From an uncultured Candidatus Peribacteria bacterium (lineage in GTDB: Bacteria; Patescibacteriota; Gracilibacteria; Absconditabacterales; Absconditicoccaceae): DNA of 60,728 nt. Location of the stretch: assembly GCA_964547365.1 (NCBI GenBank), contig CAZJMP010000001.1, forward strand, positions 1-60,728, in the 5' to 3' direction. The notes under the pieces were generated by a model. The model was not told the DNA's origin, did not search any database, and saw only the letters and a program-made list of their open reading frames with translations. Numbering within the stretch: the first letter of the stretch is position 1; every line of letters begins with the position of its first letter. This document shows, in pieces, positions 1 to 60,728 of the stretch. The translations under genes and the position numbers were made by a program.

Positions 1-194
1 CCGGATGCTGTACTCTGGATAGATACTTTATATATGAATTATCTACGCCTCGCCTACATCCCCCGGTAATTACCGGGGGGCCCATTCCGGACTCGTCCAT
101 GCAAGCAGCTTCATCTTCTTTTTGATTCCTATCTCGTGGCGAGCATCCGGCGTTGTAGTATAGTTGATCTAATTACTGGCGAAAGTTTTTTTTT
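1..194. repeat. Structured repeat family, copy A (left part cut by window edge)
   Basis: Closing stem ccggatgct(1-9)/agcatccgg(142-150); internal GC hairpin at 60-80; 3' block ctatctcgtggcgagcatccggcg, then ggcgaaagt and a T-run. Same layout as copy B (6449-6668), with compensatory stem substitutions. Confidence 0.5.
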
Positions 195-204
195 GTCTAT
201 ATAC

Positions 205-232
205 TTGATTTCCTTTTTCGGAAATCTATATT
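205..232 (+). promoter_or_regulatory. Putative sigma70-type promoter for the riboswitch-metK transcript
   Basis: ttgatt(205-210), 16-nt spacer, tatatt(227-232). Confidence 0.3.
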
Positions 233-243
233 CTGACTGTGAT

Positions 244-360
244 ACTATCCAGAGTGGACGATAGAGACTAGGCTCGTTAAGCGTCCCGGCAACCTTCCAG
301 AGGCAGGTAAACTTCCATTGGGAACGGTGCCAATTCCTACCCTCACGGGAAAGATATGAG
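244..360 (+). promoter_or_regulatory. SAM-I (S-box) riboswitch aptamer
   Basis: S-box core blocks in the canonical order: tatccAGAGtgg, CCCGGCAACC (285-294), GGTGCCAATTCC (326-337), P4 hairpin ccctcacggg, closing GAAAGATAtGAG. Lies directly 5' of metK. Confidence 0.75.
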
Positions 361-383
361 AAAACATTCTATCGTTTTTTTTG

Positions 384-420
384 AACTCTTTCTTCGTGAT
401 AAAGAGTTTTTTATTTTTTT
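384..420 (+). terminator. Intrinsic terminator (riboswitch expression platform)
   Basis: Stem aactcttt(384-391)/aaagagtt(401-408) followed by a T-run, 13 nt before the metK ATG. Confidence 0.6.
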
Positions 421-432
421 ACACTCTTTTTC

Positions 433-1557
433 ATGAAACAATTCATTACCAGTGAATCCGTTACCGAGTGACATCCTGACAAAATCTGCGATCAGGTGTC
501 TGATGCTATTTTGGACGCTTGTCTGCACCAAGATCCTTTATCTCGTGTCGCTTGTGAATGTCTTACAACGACCGATACTATCATTGTTGCTGGGGAAATT
601 ACCACGCATGCCGATATCGATATCGAAGCTATCGTAAGAAAGACTATCTGCGATATCTGATATGATAGCGATGAAAAATATTTCGATGGTGAGACGTGCA
701 AGGTTCAGATACTCATTCATAAACAATCTCCGAATATCGCTCAAGGTGTCGATACGTGATGAGCAGGTGATCAGTGAATGATGTATGGGTATGCAAGCAA
801 TGAAACTAAAAATTATATGCCTATGCCGATCGATTTGGCACATGCCTTATCTAGAAGACTTGCTCATGTGAGAAAAGCATGAATCTTACATCGAATCTAT
901 CCTGATGGCAAGACACAAGTGACCGTGGAATATTATGGCCACAAGCCGTTGAGAGTCGATGCTGTCGTTGTTTCTGCACAGCATGCCAAAGATATCTCCA
1001 ACGAGCAGATCAAAAAAGATATTATCGAACAGGTCATCACACCTGTCATAGGTGAGTATATTGATGATCAAACTAAGATTTTTATTAATCCTACCTGAGC
1101 ATTCAATATCGGTGGTCCGGCTGGTGATACGTGAGTGACGTGAAGAAAGATTATCGTCGATACTTATGGTGGAGTTTGAAGGCATTGATGATGATGCTTC
1201 AGTGGAAAAGATCCGACCAAAGTCGATAGAAGCGGTGCATATATGATGCGTTATCTTGCCAAAAATGTCGTCGCTGCATGATTGTGCGACAAATGTGAAC
1301 TTCAGGTTTCCTATGCGATAGGTGTGAAACAGCCGTTGAATATCTATATCGATTGTTTCGGTACGGAAAAAGTCGATCTTCAAACGATTATTGATACGAT
1401 AAGAAATCATTTTGATCTGAGTCCAAAATGAATCATCGAAAGGTTATGATTGAGAACACCGATATTCAAATCAACTTCTGCGTACGGCCATTTCGGCAGG
1501 CATGAATTCCCTTGGGAACAGCTTGATAGCGTGGAGATTTTCAAAAAACTTATATAA
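433..1557 (+). CDS. metK: S-adenosylmethionine synthetase (table 25, about 15 in-frame TGA=Gly)
   Basis: [12 protein letters not shown][TGA=G][22 protein letters not shown][V][13 protein letters not shown]-terminal YGHFGR..FPWE. Triple TGA at 1186-1194 reads HGGGC. Ends in TAA. Confidence 0.95.
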
Positions 1558-1639
1558 TGTCATTTCTTTTTTGATATCGAAATATCCATAAGGCATCTGT
1601 TGTATCTTTGAATTATCTGTAAAAAATACGCATAATTTT

Positions 1640-1667
1640 TTGACAATTCAAAAAAAATATGTACAAT
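1640..1667 (+). promoter_or_regulatory. Putative promoter
   Basis: ttgaca(1640-1645), 16-nt spacer, tacaat(1662-1667), upstream of the 1701 ORF. Confidence 0.4.
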
Positions 1668-1700
1668 ATAATTGTGTTTTATATTTTACGATATGATGCT

Positions 1701-2261
1701 ATGAAAAAGTTTCTTTGAAAATTAGGAGAAAAAATTGGTTTTCCCTCTCCTAAAGAAAAACCCTCTAATATCGATTTCTCATGAAAGATGGAAAAAATAT
1801 CTGATGATACTTTTGTTTTTGAAAGCTATGGGCAGAAAACAGAAATTAAAGTATATGACGAGTGATTGTTTGATATAGGAGGGATTATTGAATCAGAAAA
1901 AAATATCAAATTAGTCGCTGATTTCATTAATCATTGAAAAAATCTAGCTGCTGAATGATATAGAAATTCTATTGAAAATATTGTTGGAGTCTCTTTTAAG
2001 TATGAACCTGATTTCCCTGAATATAATGTATCTGTTATTTTTGATATCGAACATGATATTGATCCTGAAGAACAGGGCGATGAATATGAATCATGATATG
2101 GTCTATCTCAATCAATTATAGAAAAGAAAATGTTTGCTAAGATGAATAAACAAGAAAAATATGTTATTGGTAAAAATGCTGCTGCTATGGCAAAATATTT
2201 GAATGAACGAGTGGAATGAGAGCATTTGTTTTCGTTTTCTGTAGCCGAAGAATCTGCATAA
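1701..2261 (+). CDS. Hypothetical protein (186 aa; invisible in the standard-code ORF track)
   Basis: ATG..TAA frame is open once 7 TGA codons are read as Gly (MKKFLGKLGEKIGFPSP...). No family recognised. Confidence 0.6.
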
Positions 2262-13911: not shown

Positions 13912-15048
13912 ATGACAGAAACAGAAGAACAGAAAACACAAGAGTATAAACCGGGTCCGATCGATGGTATGATCGTATCTACATTGCAATCCATGGACAG
14001 AGGAAGTTTTTGAACCAAGGATAAGATTCTCTTTTTCAAGGAATTGGCATATCTCTTGAACGGAGGAGTCTCTTTAGTAGATAGTATGAATATCATCGGT
14101 GAAAGTTCAGATAACTATGCACTCAAAGAAATCTCCAGAAATATCTTGGCATTTTTGCGCAAAGGTAAAAGCTTTTCATATGCGCTCAATAGACTGCCTG
14201 ATTATTTCGATCAGGGCGATTACACCATCGTCAAGGCAGGAGAGATGTCCGGTAATCTGCCTATGATCCTGCAATCATTATCCAATGAATATGTGTATAT
14301 CAAAGAGATGAAAAATAAATATATTTGAGCATTGATGTATCCTATGATTCTTGTCGTCATTTCTATCGTAGCGGTATTCGCCTTGTTCTTGTTGGTTTTG
14401 CCTGGTATTTTCTCTATAGCGACAAGTTTCCAGAATCTCGAATTGCCATGGATTACCAGAGCTTTACATGATACTTCGGTCTTTTTCCAAACACAACGGA
14501 AACTCATGCTTGGAATTATCGCTGGATTATGACTTGTCGGTGGCGTATTCTTCTCTACTGATCTCGGAAAGAAAACTCGGTTCAGTATCTTGCTCTGAAT
14601 CCCGTTGATTGGTAAGATGACAAAATATTTCTATCTCGTAAAATTCTGCAGATATACCAAACTGATGATGGCTGCCGGCATGAATTATCTCCAGACTTTT
14701 AGTTTGCTTAGGGATATCCTCGGCATCTCTGCGTATCAGAATATGATCGAACGTGTCGTCACGGGATTGAACAAATGAGAAACCATCTATTCTACTTTAC
14801 AATATGAAACAGATCTGATTCCTTCCGATGTAGCTGTGATGATCAAGGTCGGCGAGGAAACGGCGAATCTTTCCAACTCTTTGGATAATGTCCTCAAGAT
14901 GTATGAGGAGGATCTCAATGTCCTGATCGGTCGTTCGTCCAAAATCATTGAGCCAGTTATGTTGGTCGGTGTCTGAGGCGTGATTCTTGTCATCGCATTA
15001 GGAATCTTTGGATTGATTTTGCAGATCATGGAAGGTGCAGGATTATAA
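13912..15048 (+). CDS. pilC: Type IV pilus/T2SS platform protein (GspF/PilC family)
   Basis: Two GspF repeats: FFKELAYLLNGGVSL.DSM, GD.TIVKAGEMSGNL, IEPVMLVG[V]GGVILVIAL. Track ORFs 14044.. and 14332.. are in frame. Confidence 0.9.
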
Positions 15049-15051
15049 AAT

Positions 15052-15170
15052 GAATTCAGAATGCAGAATTCAAAATTTAGAATGTAGAATTCAGAATTTA
15101 GAATGTAGAATTTAGAATGTAGAATGTAGAATTCAGAATTTAGAATTTAGAATGTAAAATTCAGAAATAG
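15052..15170. repeat. 17-unit tandem heptamer array GAAT[T/G][T/C]A
   Basis: gaattca gaatgca gaattca aaattta gaatgta gaattca gaattta gaatgta gaattta gaatgta gaatgta gaattca gaattta gaattta gaatgta aaattca gaaatag. Begins 3 nt after the pilC stop. Confidence 0.95.
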
Positions 15171-15171
15171 A

Positions 15172-15198
15172 AAAACTGTCGGTGAAGACAGTTTTTTC
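15172..15198 (+). terminator. Intrinsic terminator after pilC and the repeat array
   Basis: actgtc-ggtgaa-gacagt hairpin plus a T-run. Confidence 0.7.
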
Positions 15199-15255
15199 GT
15201 TGAAAGCGAAAGTATAATGATTACATATGCATAGTGATTTATATTCGTTTATACT

Positions 15256-15750
15256 ATGAGAAAAGCATTTACGCTTATAGAGATAGTCATCGTATTGTTG
15301 GTGATCGGCATATTGATGGGAGCGACCATGAGGTTCTGATCCAATCGTATCACGGATCTCAAGGCACAGACGATCAAAGAGCAATTCGTCGGGCGATATA
15401 ACGATCTCTATAGTCAGAATATGACCTCGAGTTTCCACAATGGACAGAAATATGAAAAGATGACCGTCGTTCTTGGACAGCCATTCTTTTATCTTTTGGA
15501 TGCGGCATCATTCACTGACTCGATTATCACGTGATATCAGCTGACCAAGTTCCGTTTCCAGCCTGAAGGAACAACTTTTACCACCGCCAATCTTGTGTTT
15601 GCTCCGTATAAGCTCTGATGCAATATCTTAGATAACGACAATCCATGAGATCGTCTTTATTTCGATTTTATCGTTCCTGAGAACGGCAAAAAATATTGTT
15701 TTGAAATTCCTTCAGAAACCTGTAAATTAATCGAAAATCGTTGTGATTAA
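15256..15750 (+). CDS. Prepilin-type (pseudo)pilin 1
   Basis: N-terminal MRKAFTLIEIVIVLLVIGIL, the prepilin cleavage/methylation motif. Confidence 0.8.
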
Positions 15751-15778
15751 TTGAAAAATTTAGTTTATGAATCCATAT

Positions 15779-16420
15779 ATGAAAAAGAAATCTGCATTTA
15801 CGTTTATAGAAGTGATCATTGCGATCTCTGTTTTTGCTGTAGGCGTGCTTGCGGTTTTGCGTCTCATCACCCAGAATCTTGTGACTTTGGATATCACGGA
15901 AGCGCGTACGACCTCCACATTCCTCGCAAAGGAATGAATAGAGCTTGTCTACAATATGAGAGATTCCAATATCCAAAAATCTTTGCCGCGGGATTGTGTC
16001 ATGTATACTGAACTTGAAACGTGAGATTGGAATGAAATAGATCCTGAACATATTTGCATGCGGTATTTTGCTTCATGAACCGAAGATAAGCAAATGCTGC
16101 AAATCTCTTTTGCACCTGAAGGATATAGCTATACCCATATTGTCGAACAATGAACATGATTCGAATCATTACGGAACGATAATAGGTTGTATTATACCAC
16201 CTGATCGATTGCAAATAAGGATTTGTTCCGATATTCCAATCTTCCTGTAGAAGGGCAGGAACCTACGACATTTGCTAGATATATTGTCTTTGATGTCGTT
16301 CGTGAATGAGACAAGATATTGCCGCCAAATAAAATCCTCAAAATAGAATCCCATGTTGCATACATGAAGGGAACAAAAACCGGTGAAATAGTCCTGGAAA
16401 GTTTTATTTGAAAATATTAG
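15779..16420 (+). CDS. Prepilin-type (pseudo)pilin 2
   Basis: MKKKSAFTFIEVIIAISVFAVGVLA. Many TGA=Gly codons. Ends in TAG. Confidence 0.75.
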
Positions 16421-16423
16421 TGC

Positions 16424-17053
16424 ATGAAAAGGAAGTGAATGACTTTGCTTGAACTCGTAATCGTGATGGCTATTCTCGGTATCCTTTTTGTATTGCTGTT
16501 GAGGACGTACAATCGGATTTCTACCATGGTGTTTCGTGTTCAACAAGAAAAGGAAGTCGCTCAGGAAATATTGCAGATATCTCAGACGGTCCAAAATCTC
16601 GCTGATAGAAATGCTATCGATTACACCAAATATTCAGGAGTAGGAAATACGTGAGAAGAAATGAGTTTAGTTTCTACTGACGGAATCACTTCTGTTCTCT
16701 ATCTCAGCGGATTGGATGGCCAAGTGACATTGTACACCACAGGCGATTGTCTTAGTCCTAGTATAGAATATGCGTTTACCGGTGCTTGATCATGATGCTC
16801 GTTGTTTGTTGATGTCTGAGGCAAAACCAGAGAACTCATCAATTCCAAGAAAGTGCTCATCAGCGAAGTCGTTTTCAAGATCATCCCTTACGCTTCTGAA
16901 CAGCAATATATAGATACAGACAATCTTTGTGCAGGAAATTATCTCCAGTGTCTCAATAGCCCATGATTCCGGATGATATTCACTGCGTATAGCGTCAATT
17001 ATTGAACTCAGCGAGCCACTCATGTGCGTGTGCCGTTCCAACAATTTTTTTAA
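16424..17053 (+). CDS. Prepilin-type (pseudo)pilin 3
   Basis: MKRK[G]MTLLELVIVMAILGIL. In frame with track ORF 16439..16654. Confidence 0.75.
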
Positions 17054-17100
17054 TGAGTTCAGAGTTTAGAATTCAGCGTGCAGAATTTAGAATCTAATAT
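17054..17100. repeat. Heptamer repeat spacer
   Basis: gttcaga gtttaga attcagc gtgcaga atttaga atctaat. Confidence 0.7.
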
Positions 17101-17107
17101 ATCTTTT

Positions 17108-18028
17108 ATGGAGAAGAAGTGAAATATCAGCATATTAGTGATCTTTGTTTTACTAGCGTCGTCGTTGCTAGGGGTTTTGTCGATGAATTTCGTGCAGCAG
17201 ATGATGAGACAATCAGCAGTCGTACATTCGTATTATAGTTCTTATTATTTGGCGAAAGCCGGCGTAGAGCTTGGATTGGCGCAGATCGTCAATCGCGGTG
17301 TGGGCTTTGAACGTGTGGTCGGTAGCGGTGATGCTGTCATGTCCGGCAATTTCCTTTGCGGAGATCGTTGTGCTTTGTCGGTATCTATTTCTGGGACATC
17401 AACGATGCTCTCCAAAGCATTCCGGCAGGGCAGCGGATGCACCTCTCCGTATGTTTTGAGCGGTGGTGATTCTGTCATCATCCCATTGTTTAGGGATGTG
17501 ACTCCATGAACGGTAGCGGATATGTTTGCATCTTGAGTTGTCTATGAAAATCTTGCTCAGATCTTCAAGAATGATTGGATATCTTTCGATACGGAATTCG
17601 GCGGTGACGTCAATTTCGGTATCCTTATCTTGTCCGGCGATGATCTTTCGGAGAACGGCATCTTTTTTCAGAAATGAAATTTAAAATCCTGACTTACCGC
17701 ATTTAGGGAGGCTTTTGAACAATATCTATGAACCATAGATTCCGGTTTGTATCCTTTGGATGCTCAACTAAAAAACAATTATGATAAATCTCGATTGGTA
17801 GATAATGGATACAAGATGTATCTTCTTATTTCCAATACTAGTTCTGCGGAAGAACAATTTTGTGCTTCTGTCGTCCAGCCACAACAAGCTCCTACGGTAT
17901 ATGTGTTGCCTACCGATAGTTTCTTTGTCAGTAGCCAAGCATCTTATGGCAATCAATATGTAGCGCTTGATGCTTCATATGCACAACCTATTCCTGGTTT
18001 CTTGTTTAGTACATATTCTTCTTTCTAG
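17108..18028 (+). CDS. PilX/GspK-like minor pilin (306 aa)
   Basis: N-terminal hydrophobic anchor ISILVIFVLLASSLLGVLSM.F..Q. Track ORFs 17138.. and 17747.. are in frame. Last gene of the pilin block. Confidence 0.55.
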
Positions 18029-18120: not shown

Positions 18121-19482
18121 ATGGAGTTAAATTCGTTAACCGCTGTTTCTCCTGTTGACGGGAGATATCGCAAAAACACCCAACAACTTGATGAATATTT
18201 TTCAGAATTTGCACTTATCAGGTATCGGTTCAAAATCGAAGTGGAATATTTCATTGCGTTGACGGAAATTATTCCTCAGCTTAGTCATTTCAAAGATCAT
18301 ATCTTACTTCGCGAACTTCGTTCGAAAGTAGAAAATTTTGAAATGGCTGATGCGAAACGTGTCAAGGAAATCGAAAACATCACTAATCATGATGTCAAAG
18401 CTGTAGAGATATTCTTGCGTGAAATTATGGCTGATTATCCCAAAGAACGTGAGTTTATTCATTTCGGACTCACTTCGTTCGATGTGGATGGCATGGCCAG
18501 ACCGCTTATGCTCAAAGAAGCTCATGAAAAAATACTCATGCCTTCTTTGTCAGCTGTAGTGCATGAAATCGATCGGTATGCGGACGATACTATGGATGTT
18601 CCTATGATGGCATTCACTCACGGGCAACCTGCTTCTCCCACGTATCTGGGTAAAGAATTGTTGGTGTTTAGATGCCGTTTGGATGATGAGATTGAATATC
18701 TGAAACAGGTACGCCATTCTGCCAAATTCGGCGGTGCTACTGGAAATTTCAATGCACATCATGTTGCATATCCTGATATCGATTGGGAAGAATTCGCTAC
18801 CAAATTCATCGAAAACCTCGGCATGAAACGCAATCGTCTTACGACGCAGATCGAACCGTATGATCATTTCGCTGCATATTGCCATGCATTGTTTCGCATC
18901 AATACCACGTTGATTGATTTTTGCCGGGATGTGTGGGAATACATCAAGATGGAATATTTCATCCAACAGCCGAAATCGGGAGAAGTAGGATCATCCGCGA
19001 TGCCTCACAAAATCAATCCCATCGATTTTGAAAATGCAGAAGGCAATTTAGGATTCGCTAATGCGATGTTCGATCATTTCGCTGCGAAACTTCCTATCTC
19101 TCGTCTTCAGCGTGACCTCAGTGATTCTACAGTCATCCGTAATGCTGGCATGCCACTCGCTCATATCCTTATTGCTCATCAAGCGATTATCAAAGGTATG
19201 AAAAAATTACGTGTCGATGGCAAACCTAATGTAAATTTTGCTGTGATTGCTGCTGATCTTGAGAAAAATTGGGCAGTTGTCGCTGAAGCAATTCAAACTA
19301 TCCTTCGTCGAGAGGGATATCCGAGTTCGTATGATACCCTTAAGGAACTCACTCGTACCGGAAAAAAAATCACCAAAGAGACTATCCATGCTTTCATCGA
19401 CACTTTGGATGTAAGTATGAAGGTCAAACTTGAACTTAAGGAAATATCTCCTTCTAATTATACAGGAGTTCGTCCTTACTAA
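18121..19482 (+). CDS. purB: Adenylosuccinate lyase
   Basis: MELNSLTAVSPVDGRY (near-identical to the enterobacterial PurB N-terminus), TNHDVKAVE, THGQPASPT, SSAMPHKINPIDFEN. Contains no TGA codon in 453 codons. Confidence 0.95.
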   Translation: MELNSLTAVSPVDGRYRKNTQQLDEYFSEFALIRYRFKIEVEYFIALTEIIPQLSHFKDHILLRELRSKVENFEMADAKRVKEIENITNHDVKAVEIFLREIMADYPKEREFIHFGLTSFDVDGMARPLMLKEAHEKILMPSLSAVVHEIDRYADDTMDVPMMAFTHGQPASPTYLGKELLVFRCRLDDEIEYLKQVRHSAKFGGATGNFNAHHVAYPDIDWEEFATKFIENLGMKRNRLTTQIEPYDHFAAYCHALFRINTTLIDFCRDVWEYIKMEYFIQQPKSGEVGSSAMPHKINPIDFENAEGNLGFANAMFDHFAAKLPISRLQRDLSDSTVIRNAGMPLAHILIAHQAIIKGMKKLRVDGKPNVNFAVIAADLEKNWAVVAEAIQTILRREGYPSSYDTLKELTRTGKKITKETIHAFIDTLDVSMKVKLELKEISPSNYTGVRPY

Positions 19483-20185: not shown

Positions 20186-21388
20186 TTATTTCATATATCA
20201 ATTCAAGAACTCTTTTCGACTCATCGGCTTTTTCCCTTCCGGTTTGAGTTGAATATCGATGACCGCTGGATGCAATGCTTTGTCTTTGAATAATGGTACT
20301 TCGTCATTGCTATTGTACAATGGTTCACTGAGTTTCAATTCTTCTATGATAATCCTTTTGTTGTCGAGCATAAAATAGATTTTGGGTCGGAGATAGAATG
20401 CGCGATATTTGTCGTAGATCGTTTCGATAGTATCGTTTCGTGGATCGATCAGTCAGGATTCTTTTTCTATTTTTCCGCAATATGTTGCTTTGTGTTCTTG
20501 CTGTGGCACTTCTCAAAGGATTTTTTTTCAGAATTTCCACAACGTATCGTTCAAAAATTTCGGACCGATCTTTTTCATCTCTTCTATCAATTCTTTCGTT
20601 GTCCGAGAGAATGGTATTGTGAATCTGAGAATGTCGATCATATTCCCTGTGTCCATGGTTGCGTCCATTTTCATGATAGTGATTCCTGTCTCTTTATCGT
20701 TATTGAGCAACGCAGATTGGATAGGTGAGGCGCCGCGGTATTTTGGCAATATCGATCCATGAACGTTGATCGGCGCAACATTTGCGATATCCAAGATCTG
20801 TTGAGGAATGATTTTTCCATAGGCGATAACTACTAACATATCTGGATTTTTTTCTTGCAATCGCTGGGCAAATTCATGTCCTTCCTCTGATTTTTCGGGA
20901 TTCAATTTTGTCGGGGTTTGAATGAATTCAGAATTCAGAATTCAGAGTCTAGAATTTTTTAATTTTTTTCCGCATTGTTTAATGATATTCTCGCACATCT
21001 CCATTCATCTGCCTGCTGGCTTGTCGCATTGCGTTACGACGCCGACGACTTCGAATCTTTTATCGTTCGCTAAACGTTCGAGGAATGGTACGCCTATCGG
21101 TGCTGACGAGAAAAAGACGATTCTGTAGTGGGCTGGATCGTAGTGTTTGTGCTTGCTTGCGGTACAGTGCAAAACTCTATCTGTGGCATAAAATATCCCT
21201 GGTCGGAATCCATATCTTTTGAGAACTTGTGTACTGTATTTGCTACAATGCGGCTCATGTGCGCACACTCTTCCTTTGAGTCGAAACGATAATACTCCTT
21301 TGTCGGGAGATAATGTGTATTGGTAGAGCTTGATGAGTCGGATAGCCGGTTTAGCAAGAGCTTTATTTAATTTTCTGAAAAAATGCAT
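20186..21388 (-). CDS. fmt: YidD-like domain fused to methionyl-tRNA formyltransferase (400 aa)
   Basis: N-terminal LIKLYQYTLSP..CAHEPHCSKYS..GF.PG..ATDR.L.C (YidD/DUF37), then with no stop or start RIVFFSSAPIGVPFLERL..VVGVVTQCDKPAGRG, VVIAYGKIIP, INVHGSILPKYRGASPIQ, and the C-terminal Fmt domain. Three track ORFs lie in one frame. Confidence 0.8.
20924..20958. repeat. Heptamer array inside the fmt coding sequence
   Basis: gaattca gaattca gaattca gagtcta gaatttt. On the coding strand this reads ..KNSRLGILNSEFI.., an insertion relative to the usual Fmt GRG..linker. Confidence 0.85.
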
Positions 21389-24280: not shown

Positions 24281-24613
24281 TTATTTCTTGATCTTGACTG
24301 CAGCTCGTCCAACCAATTTCTTAGCAGGTTTTTTAGCAGCAGGTTTTTTTGCCTTCTTAACTTTTTTAGGAGCTTTTTTCTTGGCAACCTTCTTAACTTT
24401 TTTAGGAGCTTTTTTCTTAGCAACCTTCTTAGCTGGTTTCTTAGCAGCTTTCTTAGCTGGTTTTTTAGCAGCTTTTTTAGCAACTTTCTTTACAGCTTTT
24501 TTAGCAGGTTTCTTAGCAACCTTTTTAGCAGCTTTTTTAGCTGGTTTCTTAGCAACTTTTTTAGCAACTTTCTTTACAGCTTTTTTTGCAGCTGGTTTTT
24601 TCTTTGCAACCAT
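24281..24613 (-). CDS. Histone H1-like Lys/Ala-rich nucleoid protein (110 aa)
   Basis: MVAKKKPAAKKAVKKVAKKVAKKPAKKAAKK... AKKP/AKKV repeats. The start is set at the internal Met of track ORF 24281..24685. Confidence 0.7.
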   Translation of the reverse strand: MVAKKKPAAKKAVKKVAKKVAKKPAKKAAKKVAKKPAKKAVKKVAKKAAKKPAKKAAKKPAKKVAKKKAPKKVKKVAKKKAPKKVKKAKKPAAKKPAKKLVGRAAVKIKK

Positions 24614-24823
24614 TGTGAGTAGATAATAAGAGAATAAAAAAGAGATATAACACATCAGATATATGCTATTTAGTAGTAATTGCAAGAGAAAATGAATGAG
24701 AAGAAAATTTTTTTTTGTAATGTGTATCTATTGCAATCACTCTTTTTACCTAGTATTTCCTTGCTCTTATTTTTTTGCAAAAAAACCTTTTCAAAAAAAA
24801 TAAAAAAATAAAAAATTTTTTTT

Positions 24824-29333: not shown

Positions 29334-29428
29334 TAATATATTTTCCATTGTTTTATAGGATAAATTTACTATTATCGATGAGTTGTCCGCCTTGGCGGAT
29401 ACTTATTTTAGCAATTTCGAAAAAAAAC

Positions 29429-32400
29429 ATGTTTGGGAAACTCATCAATTTGATAGCTGGTGATTATAATCAGAAACAGCTCAATAAACTCCGACCTATG
29501 GTAAAAAAGATAAACGAATTTTTTGTTGAATTTGATTCGCTTTCTGATGAACAAATCAAAGCTAAGACTCAGGAATTCAAAGACAGACTCGCAAAAGGCG
29601 ATACTTTGGATGATCTTTTGCCTGAAGCATTCGCTACGGTAAAACAGGCCTGCAAGAGAATGGTGGGTTCAGAAGTTGAAGTAAAATGAGAAAAACTCAT
29701 CCGAAATATGGTTCCTTATGATGTTCAGATGTTATGAGGTATCATATTACATAAATGAATCATCGCTGAGATGAAAACCTGAGAAGGAAAGACATTGGTT
29801 GCAGTCGCTCCTGTCTATCTCAATGCGTTATCTGGTAAATGAGTCCATGTCGTTACGGTCAATGATTATCTTGCTTCTCGTGATGCACAATGGATGGGAC
29901 ATGTCTACAATCGATTGGGACTTAGTTGTGGTTGTGTGACCAAGACAGTTTCTTTGCAAAAAAGAAGAGAGGAATATGCAAAAGATATCACGTACATTGA
30001 AAATTCAGAACTTGGATTTGATTATTTGAGAGATAACCTTGTAAAATCTATGAATGATAGATCTCTTGTCTGGAGACCTCTCAATTATGCTATCGTCGAT
30101 GAAATCGATAGTATCTTGATTGATGAAGCAAGAACTCCGCTGATTATTTCTGAGCCCAATGCTGAAGCTACCGATAAATATATCTACTATGCTCAGATAG
30201 CTAGAGGTTTGACTCCTTGCACAAGCAAGAAAAAAGTATCTAAGTGATTGCTACAAGAATTGCTGACTGAAGGAAAATCTGGAAAAGATCAAGAAGAAGA
30301 TGGAGATTATTATATTGATGAAAAAACAAAGACTGCTGCGCTCAGTGGAAGAGGTATCGCAAAGTTGGAGGAGATCCTTAAGGTAGAGAATCTCTACAAG
30401 GATTTGTGATACGAAGAGATTCATCATATCGAGAATGCTCTTCGTGCACAAGCTGTCTATGAAAAAGACAAAGAATATATCGTCAAGGATAATGAAGTCT
30501 TGATCGTTGATGAACATACAGGTCGTACGATGCCAGGAAGAAGATTTTCAGAATGATTGCATCAAGCTATCGAAGCAAAAGAGTGAGTCAGAATACAAAG
30601 AGAATCTAAGACGTTAGCTACCATTACGTACCAGAATTTCTTCAAACAATACAATAAGCTTTGTGGAATGACAGGAACTGCATTGACAGAGGGAGAGGAG
30701 TTTGAGAAAATTTATGAACTTTCTGTTTTGGAAGCTCCTACCAATAAGCCTACTATCAGAGTCGATAGAAATGATAAGGTCTATTACAATGAGTCTGTTA
30801 AATGGAAATTCGTCAAACAACATATCCAATTCGCTCATGAAATAGGACAGCCTATCTTGATTGGTACTGCGAATATCGCGACATCAGAATATGTTTCCAG
30901 AATGTTGGAAAAAGATGCTATCACGCATTATGTCTTGAATGCAAAGTTCCATGAACAAGAAGCGCATATCGTTTCCCAGGCCGGAAAATTCAAGAGTGTA
31001 GTCGTCGCTACCAATATGGCCGGTAGAGGAACGGATATCAAGCTTGAACAATGACTCAATGAAAAACTCGCTGATAATTATGCAAAACGGGTCAAAAAAC
31101 AGATCGTTACTGAGAAGAAATGAGTGTCTGTAGATATCTATTCGTCTGTGGAATTCGAACTTACTATGGATGGTATCAGGCGTGTTTTGGGTATGAGCGA
31201 TGAGTTGATCAGACAAGCCGAAAGCGATCGAGTGAGCCATGATGGCATTATGATGAAAATAAGATTCAATAGGAGCAAAAAAACAAATACCGACGCGTTT
31301 GTAGAGATATTCTTCAAACCTGCTGAAGGTGAAGCAAAAGAAACGCTTGAACAAGATTTCCATTATGGACTTTTCATCCTCGGTACGGAAAAACATGAAT
31401 CAAGGAGAATTGACAATCAGCTCAGAGGCCGTGCCGGTAGACAAGGAGATCCTGGTGTCTCTGTCTTTTTCGTCGCACTTGACGATCTTATCATGCGTAA
31501 GATGTGAGGAGAAAGAATTCAAGGCATTGCAGCAATGCTTCTTGGTAAGACAGAATTGGAAAACTTAGAGCTTACGCAAAGCCAATTCACTAGTTCTATC
31601 GTCAGATCACAGAAACAGATGGAAGGACGGCATTTTGGTATCAGAAAACACTTATTCGATTATGATAGCGTCATCAATAAACAAAGACAAGCAATCTACA
31701 AGAAGAGAGATGATATCCTAGCTAGTGAGACTGATGAAGAGATGAGAAAATATCTTGTCGAGACGATTAAACTTGAGATACAGGAAAATATGGATGATAT
31801 TGTCAGCAAACAAATAGCTAATGCTCAGACACTCGAACAATCTCCTGCACAATTCCTTCGTGTCATGGACAAGGAATTCTCTTTGAAACTTGAACATAAA
31901 CAATTCCAGATATTCGAAGAAATGACTTTTGATAAGCTTCAAATCGAGCTTTCGCTCTTTATGCTGGAACAGCTCAAGGCAAAATTCGCGATGATGGATG
32001 TAAATAAACTTTATCAGATCTTCAAGGATGTCTATCTCTATCATTTGGATACTTTACGGGTGAAACATCTCGATGAGATGGAGTATCTCAGAGATAAAGT
32101 AGGATTGATGTGATATGCACAGCTTGATCCGTTGATTGTTTACAAAGCAGAAGCCTATGATAAATTCCAGACGTTGCTTTATAGATTAAAGTTTGACGTG
32201 ACGGCATATATTGTCGGTATCGATTTTTCTATGCTTCAGCAGCCAGCTCCGCAGATTATAGAAGTCGGTTCCCAGAGCGAGGCTGAATATCTCAAAATGT
32301 TGCAAAAGGTCGGTTCTGAGATGAAAGATGTACAGATCCAACAACCTCAACCAGCTCCTCAAAAGGTAGTCTATGAAAATACTGATGGTTTTGAGATCTT

Positions 32401-32545
32401 TGAAGTGGATGATAAAAATCAACCGAAATGAACTCCTCAGGTGTTCGATGAACCTATGATTCCGCAGCCAGGAGGCAAGGCAAGACCTAATGATCCATGT
32501 CCATGCGGCTCCGGCAAGAAATACAAGAAATGCTGCGGTGCTTAA
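29429..32545 (+). CDS. secA: Preprotein translocase ATPase SecA (1038 aa)
   Basis: MKT[G][74 protein letters not shown]-terminal Zn motif [14 protein letters not shown]. Six track ORFs lie in one frame. Confidence 0.97.
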
Positions 32546-33797: not shown

Positions 33798-35815
33798 TTT
33801 TCTAGATCGATAGTTCTCAAAATTTCCAAAGCTTTCGCAATAGTCTGTTCCTGTTTCTGATACTCCAATCGGACACACATTTTGCTGATGATCCTGATTA
33901 CCAGGCATGCATTGAAAATGCGCTTATCCACTTTTTTATTGCTGCCTTCTTCATATCATTCCCGAAGAGATTTGCTAAGAGGTCCTTTGTCGCCGACCAT
34001 ATTTTTCCCTAAGAGGATATGGAGCTGGACAGCTGCAAGATCGAGCAATGGATGGTCGATTTTCAAGTTCGGATCAAATACGGTTATAGGTTCTGTGAGC
34101 ATCAAGTTATCTAATCGTGGATCCTCATGATTGAGCGATGGTTTTAGTCCTCATTCGAATTCTTTCTCGACGATTTGGATGGCTTGGTGTAATTTCTCTT
34201 GCTCATTTTCCCCCATGATGCCTTTTTTTGTGAGTTTTTTCACCCAGCGCTTCTCAAATGCAGTGTAGTAATCTTCCATAATATCATTTTCTCCTATAGC
34301 CATTTTACCATCTATCTTTTTCAGTCGACCGAATCATTCTCCTTGTATCTGAGATATTTTTCAGATAGCCATTCCTATCTCTTTGACAATCTCCTGTTCA
34401 TTGTCTTTATCCAGTTTTCTTGTCGGCTTGACAAATTCCATTATGGAGTAGGGAAATTCCATTCCATTGAATTCCATGACGTCCATTTTGTAGATTTTCG
34501 GCGTTTTTACTCCTATATCTCTCCGCATATCCAGCGCTTTGGCTTCGATATGCACTTTATGATCTATCATTCCTGGAAAATCGCTGCATGATTTGAAGAC
34601 ATATTCTTTTCCATCATCGGTTACGATCTTAGCCACCACAGACATCACTCATTCTGTGAATATGTGGTAATCCTTGATCTTTCCTAGACCGAAAACATCT
34701 TTCCCTATAATATCTTCTAGGAATTTTTCTATATTTTTCCTGAATTCCATCTCTTTTTTATCTAGATGCTCGTGCTCGACTATTTTCTTGTTGGATGATT
34801 CTATTACCTCATAATCTTTGAAATAGATGGTCATAGGATGGCCGTTTTTTTCATCTTCTTTGGCTTGTTCTATGGCTGAGATATCTTGTTCCAGATTTTC
34901 GTTTGGCTCCTTTTCGTTACTTTTTCTGAAAACATTGATACCATAATCATAATTATCTCTATAGAGGCCGAACTTGAAATATGCTGTATTCTTTCGAATT
35001 TCTGGATGATTTGCGCTTGACGCTAATGGTCCATGATACTCGTCTTTTTCTATTTTGTCGGGATTTTTCAATGGTATTGCTTTCCCATTCATGGTGATTC
35101 TCAGATATCCATCATCCTTTCCTGAAAATTTGAATGTGTATTCCATCTCTGTTCGTTTCCCTAATATTTTTTTCACTGGTATCTCGCCTATTATTGTTGC
35201 TCATTTTTTCCCTTCTATGTCTCAGCTTGTGTTGATGTAAAACTGCATTTTCCCTCTTTTGAGCTTTTGTGCTAGGAATGGATTCTGTGATGCTCATTTT
35301 ATATCGGTATGCTGTTTCCATTGTCCGATTACTAATCTATTTGCTGTCAAAGGAAATTCTTCGGGTATCATGAATTTGAATTTGCAGGTATATTCCTTTC
35401 CAATCTCTATCTTTTCTTTATCTTGGATCTCTGTCCTTTCTGATGCTTTCTTATCGCCTAAGTTCGCTATCTCCCTTTCTTTGTCTTCATCGGTAAATCG
35501 TTGATGGTTGTTGACTTGGAGTATATCTCCTCTTTTTATCATCATCTTAAATGTCCCATCCTTTTCTATAGTTACTCTGTCCGGCTCTGTTTTGTCGAAT
35601 TGCCGTGTTGTTTTCCCTATAATCATTTCGGGTTTATCACCTCATTTCCTTCCTCTTGCTATATTCCCTCTCTTGTACTCGGCAATCTTATCTTGTAACC
35701 GTTGGTTCGGATTCTGTCATAAGTTTTCTAATTCTTCTTTTTTGATGGTAGCAGTAAATTCTCCTGTCTTATCAGGTAATTTTCATTTTGGTCATGTAGT
35801 TGGCGTATCGATCAT
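33794..35815 (-). CDS. Fusion ORF (673 aa): N-terminal polysaccharide-lyase-like jelly-roll domain plus C-terminal APH/choline-kinase-like phosphotransferase domain
   Basis: Track ORFs 35294..35626, 34649..35176 and 34361..34648 plus extensions lie in one frame. VIGQWKQH, YLRITMNGK, AYFKFGLYRDNYDYG (PF14099-like pattern). C-terminal HEDPRLDNLML (HxDxxxxN) and VFDP. Confidence 0.55.
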
Positions 35816-40853: not shown

Positions 40854-40886
40854 TTGTTTTTTGTTTCTATTTATCTTATCATTTCT

Positions 40887-42305
40887 ATGAATTTAACACT
40901 CAAAACATATATCAACGACAAGAAACTTGTTGCTAAGGATGTCGTGAAAGGCTGCATGGAGAAAGCAAAAACATTGAATGCTGACTATTTTTCCTTTGTG
41001 AGATTCCATGATGACTATGTAGCTGCCCATCTCGACGAATTTGCTTCGAAACCGTTGAAGGCTGCACCTATTTGAATTAAGGACATTATTCTGACTCAAG
41101 AGTATATTACTTCATGCTGATCGAAAATACTTGAAGAGTATGTAAGTCCGTATAGCGCTACCTGTTTTTTGAACTTAGAGAAAAACGGAGGATTGATGAT
41201 CGGAAAAACGAATATGGACGAATTTGCGATGGGTTCCTCTACAGAAACATCATATTTCGGCAAGACGAAAAATATCTACGGAAAAGATAGAAGCCCTGGA
41301 TGAAGTTCTGGATGATCTGCGGTTGCTGTCGCTTCATGAGCGTGTTTAGCTGCATTGGGAACTGATACCTGAGGAAGCATTCGTCAGCCTGCTGCATGGT
41401 GCGGTATTGTCTGAATGAAGCCTACCTATGGTATGGTTTCTCGTTATGGCGTACAATCTATGGCTTCGAGTCTAGATCAAGTTGGTGTCTTTACGAACAC
41501 TGTTGAGGATGCAGAGATCTTATTGAAAGCCATAGCTGGATTCGATCCAAAAGATTCACAGAGTGATCCGAGAGCGGATGAATTTGTAAATTCAGAATTC
41601 AAAATTCAGAGTTCAGAGATAAAAAAATTTAAAGTTTGAGTGCCGAAAGAAGCATTAGGAGAATGATTAGACCCTCAAATAAAGGCATTATTTCTTGCAA
41701 CTATTGATAAACTTCGTGCAAACGATATTGTAGTCGACGATATCTCATTGCCGATGATGGCGTATGCTGTTCCCATGTATTATACTTTGATGCCTGCGGA
41801 AGTAAGTACGAATTTGGCGAGATTTGACGGTATCAAATACTGACTTCAGTCTGATAGCCTGAATGCTGATACTATACAAAAATATTATGAAAACATTAGA
41901 TCCGAATGATTTGGTGATGAGGTCAAGAGAAGGATATTGCTCGGTACTTTTGTTTTGAGCTCAGCTAACTATGAAGGATATTATCTCAAGGCTCAGAAGG
42001 CAAGAGAGGAGTTGCAGGCAGAGTTTGACAAAACATTTGCAAACTATGATATTATTCTTACACCTACTACACCTGAGGCAGCATGGAAGCTCGGTGCAAA
42101 AAATGACGATCCTTTGAAAATGTATTTAGCTGATATGTACACTATCCCTGCCAATATGGCGTGATTGCCAGCCATGTCTGTTCCTATGGGTATGGTTGAG
42201 GATCAAGGGGAAAAGCTACCTGCATGAATACAACTTATGGCAGATAAGCGAGCTGAGAGCAAGCTTTTCGGGTTTGGTTGTTATCTCGAAAAATTACTTG
42301 CGTAA
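40887..42305 (+). CDS. gatA: Glutamyl-tRNA(Gln) amidotransferase subunit A
   Basis: Amidase signature [18 protein letters not shown][G]SSG[G]SAVAVAS (TGA at 41301 and 41313), GTDT[G][17 protein letters not shown]. Confidence 0.95.
41588..41618. repeat. Heptamer array inside the gatA coding sequence
   Basis: aaattca gaattca aaattca gagttca gag encodes [11 protein letters not shown] in a variable GatA linker. Confidence 0.85.
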
Positions 42306-42327
42306 ACAAAAGAATTAATTACAACAT

Positions 42328-42399
42328 GGTCCGGTCGTTTAGTGGATAGGACACAACCCTGCGAAGGTTGTAACCCCGGTTCGACTCCGGGTCGGGCCG
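42328..42399 (+). tRNA. tRNA-Arg (anticodon GCG)
   Basis: Hand-folded cloverleaf: acceptor GGTCCGG/TCGGGCC, anticodon arm CAACC-CTGCGAA-GGTTG, T arm CCCGG-TTCGACT-CCGGG. Confidence 0.8.
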
Positions 42400-42411
42400 A
42401 ATGAATACTAT

Positions 42412-45001: not shown

Positions 45002-45041
45002 GGATTATCTATGCAATAAAAAATTCCTAGCATATTATGTC

Positions 45042-45123
45042 TGCCGTCGGGGGGACTCGAACCCCCAAGTCTTGCGACATACGTACCTGAAACGTACGTG
45101 TATACCAATTCCACCACGACGGC
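45042..45123 (-). tRNA. tRNA-Leu (anticodon CAG), class II long variable arm, no encoded CCA
   Basis: GCCGTCG-TG-GTGGAATTGGTATACAC-G-TACGT-TTCAGGT-ACGTA-TGTCGCAAGACTT-GGGGG-TTCGAGT-CCCCC-CGACGGC-A. Collinear with E. coli tRNA-Leu(CAG). Confidence 0.9.
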
Positions 45124-45136
45124 ATGTATAATTGAA

Positions 45137-46065: not shown

Positions 46066-46623
46066 TTATTTGCAATATTCTTTCAACTGTTCTTTCACTT
46101 CCATGAAATCATTTATGAATCATGGACAGAAATCCTCCTTATGCTCCGTTAATTCTTTTTCTACTTCTTCAAAATTCATTTCTTTGGATTCCACTAATTC
46201 TTCATTGAGCTGTATGATATCATCCGTTTTGCCGACGAAGACTCCGCAGAATATCTTGTAGGTCTTGTCATCATTGTGTACTTCCTGGTAGAATTTTTTG
46301 AGTAGAGTGAGCGGACATGATATGTTCAACTCTTCTTGTAATTCACGTTGAGCTGCTTCTTCGTATGATTCTCATTGGATTACGTTTCCAGCTACTGCTA
46401 GATCATAGAGTCCTGCAACATCTTTTTTATCATCGGCTCTTTTGCAGACGATAAGTTTCCTATTCGATCTTATCAGGAATATGGCGACTACTCTGGATAT
46501 GAATCCTTGCTCTATTTTTTTGCTTTTCAATTCTTGTCCTATGATTTCATCTTTTTCGTTCACAACATCTACCAAATGATCTGCCATTATGCTAATTATG
46601 AAACTAAAATCCTTCCTGCTCAT
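46066..46623 (-). CDS. NUDIX hydrolase
   Basis: Nudix box G[G]ESYEEAAQRELQEELN spans the TGA junction of track ORFs 46372..46623 and 46120..46329. An alternative internal Met start is possible. Confidence 0.75.
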
Positions 46624-57940: not shown

Positions 57941-58077
57941 ATGGATTTTTTTGGGACTTTAGTGGTGAGTGTTTACTAAAATCCGGACAAAAATCAATTG
58001 ATTTTATGCTATATTTGTTTACATATCATGTGATGAATGTTTTTCATCCTATTTTTACACGATAATTCGATCGAATC

Positions 58078-58482
58078 ATGGATCTGAATAAGGTAATGAT
58101 TATCGGAAGAGCTACGAACAATCTGCAGGTCAAGACTATCGAAAGCAGTTGAACTTCTGTCGTGAACTTCACTGTTGCAACCAACAGGAAATTCAAGAAT
58201 AAGGAGGGTAACGTGCTGGAAGATGCAGAGTACCACAGATGTGTGGCCTACGGTAAAGGCGCTGAAGTATTGTCTAAGTATCTGAACAAGGGTAAGAGAA
58301 TCTACATTGAAGGTAGATTGAGAACAAGAAAACGGCAAGACAGTGAAGGTAAAGACAAATTCTCCACTGAAATTATCGTTGACAATTTCATCTTCTTGGA
58401 TCCTAAGGGACAAGGTGATGATGATCATGTATTGGATGCTGTTGAATCAGCTATCCCAGAAGACGAAGATGTACCATTCTAA
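58078..58482 (+). CDS. ssb: Single-stranded DNA-binding protein
   Basis: LNKVMIIGR.T, F.VATNR, H.CV..GK.AE, IEGRL.TR, acidic tail EDEDVPF. Confidence 0.92.
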
Positions 58483-58570
58483 AACGTTGATAAAATGATA
58501 AATTGATAAAATGTTAAATTGCTATCATTCATCTGTTTAACGTTTAAGCATTTTATCGTTTTAACATCAT
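58483..58570. repeat. 8-nt tandem repeat TGATAAAW with an inverted partner
   Basis: tgataaaa tgataaat tgataaaa tgttaaat, then ..cattttatcgttttaac (an inverted copy). Confidence 0.7.
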
Positions 58571-58651
58571 AATATTATGTCGATACTTATCTATGCACAA
58601 AGAAGTATCTATGTTTTTTAGACAGTTTTATACAGTTAGCGTTCGGTGATT

Positions 58652-59236
58652 ATGAGCTTCAAGACTAAATTCAAATATTTTCTCCTCGATCTTTTCGATA
58701 TGGTATCGTTTTTGATATTTGTGTGAGGAATAGTTCTGTTTATCAGATTTTTTGTCGCAAATCCATATACGGTAGTATGAGCGAGCATGTCTCCTACTTT
58801 TGAGGAAAATGATTTTATTATCGTGGACAAAATCACTCCAAGGTTTAGTGATCTTCAAAGAGGCGATGTCATTGTCTTTGTCCCTCCTGGAAAGACTATC
58901 CCATATATCAAGAGAGTTATTTGATTGCCTGGAGAGACTATTAGGATAAAAAACAATAGAGTATCTGTTTGTAAAACAGAAAATGCTATAGAGCAATGCA
59001 ATATCCTTGAAGAAAAATATCTTACTTGATCTGTGCAAACTGATGCAAGATGCTGAAAAAGCGAATTTGAAGTCAAAGAATGATTGTTTGTCATGTGAGA
59101 TAATAGATGATTCTCTACTGATTCTCGCTGTTGTTTCTGATTGGATTGCTATGAATGATCCTCGTATGAAGTACCATTCGATCATATCATAGGCAAGGTA
59201 TATGTCAGATTTTTCCCTCGTTTTCAGACATTCTAA
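58652..59236 (+). CDS. lepB: Signal peptidase I
   Basis: V[G]ASMSPT, KRVI[G]LPGE, M[G]DNR[G]FSTDSR. Confidence 0.9.
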
Positions 59237-59263
59237 TGCTATTTTATCCTTAGTGTTTTCCCT

Positions 59264-59839
59264 ATGAAAATATTTTCAAACTTTGACACTAGGCTAAGAC
59301 AGAAGGTTTTTGAAGAATACAAGATCAAATACGGCAGTGAAAACGTCCTTTGCTTCTGAAGAAGCAAGCTTTATCATATCATCAAAGTAGGAATCCCTCT
59401 TTTTATACTGACTCTAATCACTGTATTATGATTGGTCTTTTTCTATAAACGGGTGGGAGGCGATTATTTCTCTTATATATTGGCAGCAATATTGATTATA
59501 GATGTTGTATTTATCTTTCCTATCATCGGGAAATATATCGACTACAAAATGGATTTCATTATTGTGATACCCAATGCTATCATGATGTATGAACAATGAT
59601 GAATACTCAAGAGAAATGTCTCTACCATTAGCGCCCAAAGTGTCAAAACTATTACTATCCAAAAGTCTGGTTTGCTCTATAGTATCTTTGATAATGGCGA
59701 TATTATCGTGTTGACGGAAGGGGATACTGAACGTAATGGTGAAATTAAATTCCGCTGGATACCGAGACCTGAAAAAAGAAGAAATCAGATTGTCAAAGTC
59801 ATAGGTCTTGATTTGGAGGCAAATCCGAATCCTAAATAA
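59264..59839 (+). CDS. Membrane protein with a PH-like domain (paralog of 50927..51556)
   Basis: Two TM helices then ISAQSVKTITIQKSGLLYSIFDNGDIIVLTEGD. Confidence 0.5.
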
Positions 59840-59864
59840 TATTTATCTCTTATCTATCGTATAT

Positions 59865-60218
59865 ATGAAACAATCTGATCAGATACCTACTATCCCTTAT
59901 GATATCTACGAATCACCTCAGGAGATCGTCATTATGCTTCCATTGGGATGAGTGAAAAAAGAAAGCTTAAATTTACATATAAAAGATTATAGATTGGTAA
60001 TTACCGGTGAGAGAATCAAACCTAAGGTAAAAGAACATCTAATTCCACTCAAGGAAGAATGCTATCGGGGTCCTATCGATATGATTATCGATTTACCTCC
60101 TCAGGTATATTTCGATAAGATCCATTCTAAATTGACTCCTGACAATACGTTGCAGATCATTGTTCCAAAAGCTTTGGTTCCGGACAAGATCAAATTAGAA
60201 GTAGAATATGATAAATAA
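59865..60218 (+). CDS. Hsp20/alpha-crystallin family small heat-shock protein
   Basis: DIYES..E.VI.LPL[G]GVKKE.L.L.I.D..L.I.GER, L.I.VPK. Confidence 0.8.
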
Positions 60219-60284
60219 ATTCAAAATTTAGTTCCGGCTGTAATCCGGAACGCCGGAATGAGGATTCAGAAAAAATAATTTAGC

Positions 60285-60310
60285 ATGGGGACGCTAGTCC
60301 CTTTTTTCTA
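60285..60310 (+). terminator. Intrinsic terminator of hsp20
   Basis: gggac-gcta-gtccc hairpin plus T6. Overlaps the 3' end of the convergent gene. Confidence 0.6.
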
Positions 60311-60728
60311 TATAGGTAGATAAGTAGCCAGTCAATATTCACCGTATAACGAAGAAGAGGTAGTTAACCATACTGTCTTCAAAGACATGTAGAAAAATTC
60401 CCATGACCAATAGTGTAAATCGTCCTATATTGAGTCATTTTCGTACAATGTATATGGTCCTTTCGTTTGCATTCATCTGTATATTCTTGAGTTTGGTCTG
60501 TATCTTTCTCGCTAATCGTATCATCTGCAATGTTACGATAGTCCATAAGAGGAATCCTATGGTACCAATATCGAGCATCAACTGCATATAATAATTCTCA
60601 GGCAAAATAGTCCCATTGTGGTGGATTGCTGGACCTGATGTCCCCAAACCATATCCTCCTGGTTGCTGGATGATGTATTTGATGCTACCGAATTTTGCTT
60701 GAATATGCCCTAGTGTGGATTCTCCTTT
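60294..60728 (-). CDS. O-antigen ligase/Wzy_C-like membrane protein, C-terminal part (5' end outside the window)
   Basis: ..QQPGGYGLGTSGPAIHHNGTILPENYYMQLMLDIGTIGFLLW.. Track ORF 60435..60647 extended through TGA to TAG at 60294. Confidence 0.6.

Follow-up and report, generated by a model that had tools for sequence, protein, structure and literature searches.

Which genetic code has to be applied to a stretch of bacterial DNA whose reading frames are broken, gene after gene, by UGA? The question is raised by contig CAZJMP010000001.1, of which positions 1 to 60,728 (38% GC) are analysed here and referred to below as the window. A first-pass annotation had proposed that UGA is read as glycine throughout, that is, according to NCBI translation table 25. 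The comparisons described here indicate that the window is very probably chromosomal DNA of an uncultured Absconditabacteria (candidate division SR1) species in which UGA specifies glycine, CGA and CGG specify tryptophan, and only UAA and UAG terminate translation. One gene, purB, which encodes adenylosuccinate lyase, stands apart from this code.

UGA as a glycine codon

When TAA, TAG and TGA are all treated as stops, 59% of the window is taken up by a greedy set of non-overlapping open reading frames (ORFs) that average 132 aa. The same procedure with TAA and TAG as the sole stops gives 62 ORFs that cover 90% of the window, with a mean length of 295 aa. The table 11 ORF track is fragmented, as the first-pass annotation had maintained, because UGA is read as glycine. 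At least one in-frame TGA occurs in 53 of the 62 ORFs; 309 TGA are found against 839 GGN codons, and UGA makes up 26% of the glycine codons of the window. Every gene re-derived in the first-pass annotation had been said to end in TAA or TAG, which agrees with the terminators of the 62 ORFs (45 TAA and 17 TAG). TGA was masked as X in the translations, so that an alignment cannot favour any residue at these positions. Pfam scans of the masked translations revealed a housekeeping gene content: MetK, FolD, an HI0933-like flavoprotein, CorA, a PilC-like T2SSF protein, PurB, a YidD-Fmt protein, HolA, chorismate mutase, GatA, RuvB, a MurC-like ligase, LepB, a PEBP protein and an SLH protein. SecA was identified through a search of the PDB rather than by the Pfam scans.

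The identity of the residue came from scripted alignments with eight orthologs of E. coli K-12, in which 31 of 59 TGA sites fell on glycine, 10 on alanine and none on tryptophan. GGN codons, taken as a control from the same alignments, fell on glycine at 104 of 156 sites and on alanine at 13. Against a glycine background of 7.4% in these alignments, the probability of 31 glycine matches among 59 TGA sites is P = 7e-20. Alignments with proteins of known structure in the PDB gave the same picture. In MetK, 13 of the 16 TGA codons lie on glycines of the E. coli enzyme, the HGGG triplet included. In GatA, glycine is found opposite TGA at 11 of 13 sites in Pseudomonas aeruginosa, 10 of 12 in Staphylococcus aureus and 9 of 13 in Aquifex, and tryptophan at none. 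The TGA in the Walker A motif of SecA lies on glycine both in E. coli SecA and in the best-matching SecA2 chain of the PDB. Where a conserved tryptophan of the E. coli orthologs was retained as a tryptophan codon (n = 4), that codon was always TGG.

The individual motifs on which the first-pass annotation had based its proposal are real. The TGA codons cited from metK, secA and gatA exist and are in frame (Table 1), and the three consecutive TGA codons of metK are found as TGATGATGA at 1186-1194, in frame within H-xxx-C. The FAD motif of the flavoprotein was recovered as IIIIGxGASG, the boxes of LepB as xASMSPT and xDNRx, and the Nudix box, whose TGA is at 46372-46374, as 'AGNVIQ-x-ESYEEAAQRELQEELNI' on the minus strand. 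The share of TGA in metK is high, as had been claimed; the figure of about 40% given for it is too low, the measured value being 16 of 35 glycine-family codons (46%).

A comparison at shorter evolutionary distance was obtained by scanning one genome per GTDB species for SecA, which yielded 79 related loci. A codon-exchange matrix was then built from the window genes and their orthologs in these loci, with TGA, CGA and CGG masked as X on both sides. In close relatives, the codon opposite TGA is TGA in 48% of cases and GGN in 47%. Where the relatives have another codon opposite TGA, it is a glycine codon in 72% of cases, and exchange between TGA and TGG is about zero. Judged by these alignments, UGA is a glycine codon. 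The argument that it represents glycine rather than selenocysteine, readthrough or pseudogenisation is upheld by the 31 of 59 sites on glycine, the lack of any on tryptophan and the exchange with GGN in the 79 loci.

CGA and CGG in native genes

The same matrix indicates that UGA is not the only reassigned codon. A screen of all 64 codons for unexpected partners flagged three: TGA, CGA and CGG, whose non-identical partners are glycine codons in 72% of cases for the first and TGG (tryptophan) in 56% and 68% for the other two; arginine codons are not among the listed top partners of CGA. In close relatives, TGG is paired with TGG in 54% of cases, with CGA in 33% and with CGG in 10%, and the partners of CGA and CGG are each other and TGG only. 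CGT, CGC, AGA and AGG pair just among themselves and with lysine codons. In SecA, 308 exchanges between CGR and TGG and 153 between CGR codons were counted, and none between CGR and an arginine codon; the pattern is repeated in Fmt, HolA, GatA and other genes. All CGR codons of SecA, of Fmt and of a large ATPase of 1,122 aa were also profiled site by site. At these sites the relatives carry TGG, CGA or CGG, with mostly aromatic or hydrophobic codons at the more variable ones, and no arginine codon was found at any of them in the 79 loci.

Codon usage and conserved sites point in the same direction. Per 1,000 codons, the window contains 4.5 TGG, 6.1 CGA and 3.2 CGG; in 19 well-supported genes, the rates per 10,000 are 55 for CGA, 24 for CGG and 34 for TGG. 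CGR would thus represent 70% of the tryptophan-family codons, CGA being the commonest of the three, and the tryptophan content of the 19 genes is 1.13% of codons when CGR is counted as tryptophan and 0.34% when it is not. Three CGR codons lie opposite a conserved tryptophan of E. coli: the CGA of metK aa154 (892-894), in 'PWLRPD'; the CGA of fmt aa334 (20387-20389), in 'NPWP', where the relatives have TGG in nine cases, CGA in eight and CGG in one; and the CGG of secA aa904 (32057-32059), in 'LW.eHL', a position that is also tryptophan in PDB entry 6t4h. A fourth, the CGA of secA aa189, is opposite an aromatic residue in the E. coli alignment. Taken together, the exchange pattern and these sites suggest that CGA and CGG almost certainly behave as tryptophan codons in native genes, with purB as the exception.

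The window encodes a tRNA-Arg with anticodon GCG, which is conserved in synteny in 17 related loci. This tRNA decodes CGU and CGC alone, so that CGA and CGG are left to other tRNAs. A sequence of 92 nt that ARAGORN calls as a tRNA-Arg(GCG)-like gene lies just 5′ of the normal 74-nt tRNA-Arg(GCG) in one related locus (L017, 21390-21481) and may represent a degenerate second copy or one that contains an insertion. Following the literature on the clade, UGA would be read by a tRNA-Gly(UCA) in a cell without release factor RF2, and CGA and CGG by tRNA(UCG) and tRNA(CCG) of tryptophan identity. CGA could have split off from CGU and CGC because the clade appears to be without tRNA-Arg(ICG).

This set of reassignments has been described before. 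A survey of genetic codes predicted for Absconditabacteria that CGA and CGG are read as tryptophan on top of UGA as glycine, with CGU and CGC decoded by tRNA-Arg(GCG), CGA and CGG by tRNA(UCG) and tRNA(CCG), and no tRNA-Arg(ACG) in the candidate phyla radiation (Shulgina & Eddy, 2021; eLife 10:e71402, PMC8629427, section 11). The code is treated as established in a 2026 paper in Nucleic Acids Research (PMC13092985). The window resembles the published case in all three reassignments, in lineage, in the use of mainly AGA for arginine, in the tRNA-Arg(GCG) for CGU and CGC, and in its low GC content (38%, against 0.26-0.38 in the survey). It differs in that CGA usage (55 per 10,000) lies above the range of the survey, a comparison that is approximate since whole genes were counted here and Pfam columns there. 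The three-codon code of the window is the already published Absconditabacteria code and not plain table 25.

With table 25, the window shares glycine as the meaning of UGA, UAA and UAG as the sole stops and the phylogenetic group. Under table 25 the 61 standard sense codons are unchanged, CGA and CGG remaining arginine, whereas here both behave as tryptophan. The exchange matrix and the conserved tryptophan sites therefore contradict the view of the first-pass annotation that table 25 suffices as the code and is the prerequisite for reading everything else in the window. It would mistranslate about 0.9% of the codons and 70% of the tryptophan residues, placing arginine at some 170 codons (112 CGA and 58 CGG) that almost certainly specify tryptophan. 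Table 25, the Candidate Division SR1 and Gracilibacteria code with UGA as glycine, is said to go back to a report by Campbell and colleagues in PNAS in 2013. NCBI may list the three-codon code as a separate 'Absconditabacterales' table, the number of which was unconfirmed by the literature search.

The purB exception and the competing codes

The claim that UGA is glycine throughout does not extend to purB, a local exception that follows the standard code. None of its 19 glycine codons is TGA (P = 0.003 for purB alone). Its arginine codons comprise 18 CGY and 4 AGR, whereas CGY makes up 26% over the window as a whole (P = 7e-8), and it is the only gene of the window with such a CGY-rich bias. 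In an alignment with 108 homologs, the columns that hold its CGG codons (aa36 and aa269) and its CGA codon (aa397) are 100%, 93% and 98% arginine, respectively. Its three invariant tryptophans are all encoded by TGG.

The gene is found at the same locus in seven other SR1 assemblies (L088, L089, L091, L065, L019, L094 and L096), in the order pilin cluster, purB, sometimes purH, YidD-Fmt, holA and onward to SecA. The exact PurB protein of the window is also encoded on Logan contig SRR8925824_397708. Close relatives such as L017, L018 and L009, which with 92% SecA identity is the closest of all, have no purB, and in L014 the gene is broken; the window has lost purH, and L096 carries it in truncated form. 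In a neighbour-joining tree the SR1 copies cluster in a single clade that excludes every other homolog; the closest of these others come from Bacteroidota, at about 60% identity. Distances between the copies do not follow those of SecA.

All eight copies share the standard-code pattern. At arginine-invariant columns, 19 of 104 codons are CGA or CGG, distributed like true arginine codons (Fisher P = 0.71). At tryptophan-invariant columns, TGG is used in 30 of 32 cases and CGR in none, and at glycine-invariant columns GGN is used in 113 of 120 cases and TGA in none. Two copies of purH likewise have no TGA among 103 glycine codons, against 26-56% TGA in neighbouring genes. The purB genes of the window and of L088, whose flanks also align, are 87% identical at the amino acid level, with five swaps between CGY and CGR and a ratio of nonsynonymous to synonymous substitution rates (dN/dS) of 0.11 under the standard code. 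By this measure purB is under purifying selection.

Several origins of the exception were considered. An assembly chimera is unlikely, as the same arrangement occurs in at least eight independent assemblies. Separate acquisitions from several donors are improbable because the copies are monophyletic and occupy one locus. A dead relic is equally unlikely, given intact ORFs and the dN/dS of 0.11. Ambiguous decoding of CGR does not account for the avoidance of TGA. No explanation that was weighed fits, and the exception is unexplained. A possible but doubtful view is that a recoded genome retains a small standard-code module under selection, purB here and purB-purH in sister SR1 genomes, after a single acquisition from a Bacteroidota-like donor. 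The literature search found no paper linking Absconditabacteria with adenylosuccinate lyase. The nearest published parallel is provided by code-11-compatible phages that interact with code-25 Gracilibacteria and Absconditabacteria (mBio, 2023; PMC10746230). As in those phages, the genes are tied to a host that reads UGA as glycine and have no in-frame TGA. Unlike phage genes, purB and purH serve metabolism and occupy a constant place on the chromosome; they also use CGA and CGG as arginine, a non-neutral choice in this host.

The CGR codons of purB, at sites that are 93-100% arginine in the 108 homologs, are also one of the points that weigh against reading CGA and CGG as tryptophan in the window, since they imply either that purB is misread by the host or that CGR decoding is not purely tryptophan. 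There are other such points. Anchors from organisms with the standard code are few, namely the three clear tryptophan sites and the aromatic one described above, and some CGR codons lie on arginine or lysine of E. coli at weakly conserved positions (secA aa49 and aa761, murC aa184). ARAGORN found four tRNAs in the window and 36 in about 1.3 Mb of related loci, none of them with anticodon UCA, UCG or CCG; Rfam, applied to the window alone, recovered the same four tRNAs only. RF1 and RF2 were both unmatched by tblastn with E. coli queries in the window and about 1.4 Mb of related loci, a result that is uninformative on prfB.

Four other readings of the codons were weighed. The one that survives best, though improbable, is that CGA and CGG are decoded ambiguously as a mixture of arginine and tryptophan, the reassignment being incomplete and caught at an ambiguous-intermediate stage. 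This would accommodate CGR at tryptophan sites in native genes together with CGR at invariant arginine sites in purB and purH, where these codons are distributed like true arginine codons and purB shows a dN/dS of 0.11, and ambiguous translation is considered excludable by experiment only (PMC8629427). Yet 70% of tryptophan positions are CGR, invariant ones in essential proteins included, so that a mixture would harm most proteins. It also leaves the total avoidance of TGA in purB and purH unexplained, and no arginine-type tRNA for CGR was seen in the window and related loci.

Plain table 25, with CGA and CGG as arginine and all else standard apart from UGA, is still less probable. Its assignment of UGA is solid, and it would explain the CGA and CGG codons at invariant arginine sites of purB, as well as three CGA sites that lie on arginine of E. 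coli at poorly conserved positions. In native genes, however, CGA and CGG swap freely with TGG and never with CGT, CGC, AGA or AGG, they lie on conserved tryptophans of MetK, Fmt and SecA, tryptophan would drop to 0.34% of codons, and the published code of the clade differs (PMC8629427).

Table 4, in which UGA is tryptophan, as in Mycoplasma, Spiroplasma and several endosymbionts, shares with the window a sense UGA, an AT-rich reduced genome (38% GC) and a rare UGG, and it can be given practically no credence, because the aligned TGA sites lie on glycine (31 of 59) and never on tryptophan, TGA exchanges with GGN and not with TGG, the relatives are SR1 and not Mollicutes, and what tryptophan gained here is CGA and CGG. 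Real stops, whether in pseudogenes, at selenocysteine or programmed readthrough sites, or in a stop-recoded phage genome, have nothing in their favour beyond the presence of in-frame TGA and are just as implausible, given 309 such codons in 53 of 62 ORFs (three in tandem in metK), their conservation as glycine over orthologs, frames that are open in orthologs of 79 genomes, and a cellular housekeeping rather than phage gene content. The ortholog alignments rule out table 4, selenocysteine, readthrough and pseudogenes. UGA as glycine with CGA and CGG as tryptophan thus stays the most probable code of the window, purB apart.

Lineage, neighbouring features and consequences of the code

All 79 SecA-related loci belong to SR1/Absconditabacterales genomes or metagenome-assembled genomes (MAGs) with the same synteny, and gene order near SecA is conserved among them. 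They include entries named 'candidate division SR1', 'Candidatus Absconditabacterales', Vampirococcus lugosii, RAAC1_SR1_1 and oral taxon HOT-345, with SecA identities from 92% down to 50%. The closest are CAZIVH010000013.1 (92%) and CAZJFP010000004.1 (91%), followed by SR1 MAGs from Lake Pavin (82-84%), RAAC1_SR1_1 (65%), oral SR1 HOT-345 (59%) and Vampirococcus (51%). Judged by SecA and synteny, the organism is a species of Absconditabacteria (SR1) from a freshwater clade, one of the two groups that the first-pass annotation had named. Many third-party-annotation MAGs among the closest loci (L009-L087) carry the submitter label 'uncultured Candidatus Peribacteria bacterium', while sharing with SR1 genomes SecA identities of 80-92%, synteny and recoded codons; the label 'Candidatus Peribacteria' looks wrong.

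The extent of recoding varies within the lineage. The share of CGR among tryptophan codons averages 0.62 in genomes of the sub-clade (SecA identity of at least 80%) and 0.27 in SR1 genomes at 58-65%, and it ranges from about 0.2 to 0.78 over the phylum. In the matched ORFs of the SecA region of Vampirococcus lugosii (L083), TGA makes up 74% of glycine codons (54 TGA against 19 GGN) at a third-position GC content of 0.08; the other SR1 genomes, with 26-32%, lie far below.

Table 1. Features of the window, with the reassigned codons that they contain.
Feature	Coordinates	Strand	Remarks
Chromosomal segment, SR1 (Absconditabacteria)	1..60728		UGA as Gly and, very probably, CGA/CGG as Trp; 62 ORFs with TAA/TAG-only stops
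SAM riboswitch (Rfam RF00162)	242-360	+	44.5 bits, gathering score 44.4
metK	433..1557	+	16 in-frame TGA including 469-471 and 1186-1194; one CGA, 892-894
P-loop ATPase, 998 aa	7495-10488	-	5 TGA among 69 Gly codons (P<1e-4)
Type IV pilus/competence-like cluster	13912-18028	+	PilC-like T2SSF and four small proteins
purB (adenylosuccinate lyase)	18121..19482	+	0 TGA; invariant Arg at CGG 18226, CGG 18925 and CGA 19309; TGG for every Trp
yidD-fmt fusion gene	20186..21388	-	6 TGA, 7 CGA, 1 CGG; Pfam YidD and Formyl_trans_N/C
Lys/Ala-rich repeat protein	24281-24685	-	AKKxAKK... repeats
secA	29348..32545	+	14 TGA including Walker A MKT-x-EGKT at 29780; CGA 29702, 29912; CGG 31088, 31628, 32057
674-aa ORF	33794-35815	-	Polysaccharide lyase and APH-type phosphotransferase domains
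P-loop ATPase, 1,122 aa	35836-39201	-	
gatA	40854..42305	+	13 TGA, including the amidase signature SPG-x-SSG-x-SA at 41301 and 41313
tRNA-Arg, anticodon GCG	42327..42400	+	ARAGORN and Rfam; reads CGU and CGC only
ORF, 133 aa	45027-45425	-	5 TGG, 0 TGA; overlaps tRNA-Leu(CAG), 45041-45124; almost certainly spurious
Small Nudix hydrolase gene	46066..46587	-	TGA 46372-46374 on Nudix-box Gly; regular expression on six-frame translations: 'GNVIQxESYEEAAQRELQEEL'

A few of the features listed in Table 1 deserve comment. The SAM riboswitch lies directly 5′ of metK. A single 400-aa ORF joins YidD, a membrane insertion efficiency factor, to the N-terminal end of methionyl-tRNA formyltransferase, and relatives retain this fusion; in L094 the corresponding ORF is 597 aa long and has an additional Ser_hydrolase match. 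The four small proteins of the pilus-like cluster have prepilin-like N-termini, and the cluster is located directly 5′ of the foreign purB, an arrangement kept in relatives. The two large P-loop ATPases are paralogous. The 998-aa one is unusually poor in TGA and has weak matches to TrwB/VirD4-type coupling proteins and to HerA (DUF87), and the 1,122-aa one has no Pfam match. The Lys/Ala-rich repeat protein resembles histone H1-like nucleoid proteins and is kept near SecA in relatives.

For the sub-clade to which the organism belongs, the captured CGA and CGG codons already outnumber the original UGG, which puts it further along than most species as described in the 2021 survey. The code also has practical consequences. 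Public gene calls for these MAGs mostly use table 11, 4 or 25. Annotation with table 11 shatters the genes of the contig and of the clade, and annotation with table 25 leaves arginine at 70% of tryptophan positions; domain searches, predicted structures and phylogenies of the whole lineage are affected.

If the tentative standard-code module were true, and did not reflect repeated re-import, the mRNAs of purB and purH would have to be decoded apart from the rest, by gene-specific or ambiguous decoding of CGR. Alternatively, the proteins would be synthesised in a compartment that uses the standard code, such as the host cell of this epibiotic or predatory lineage, and the parasite would gain the purine output. 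The purB-purH module is the part of these results that would surprise specialists and is worth a dedicated follow-up, as a natural test of how strongly recoding cuts a genome off from genes that arrive by horizontal transfer.

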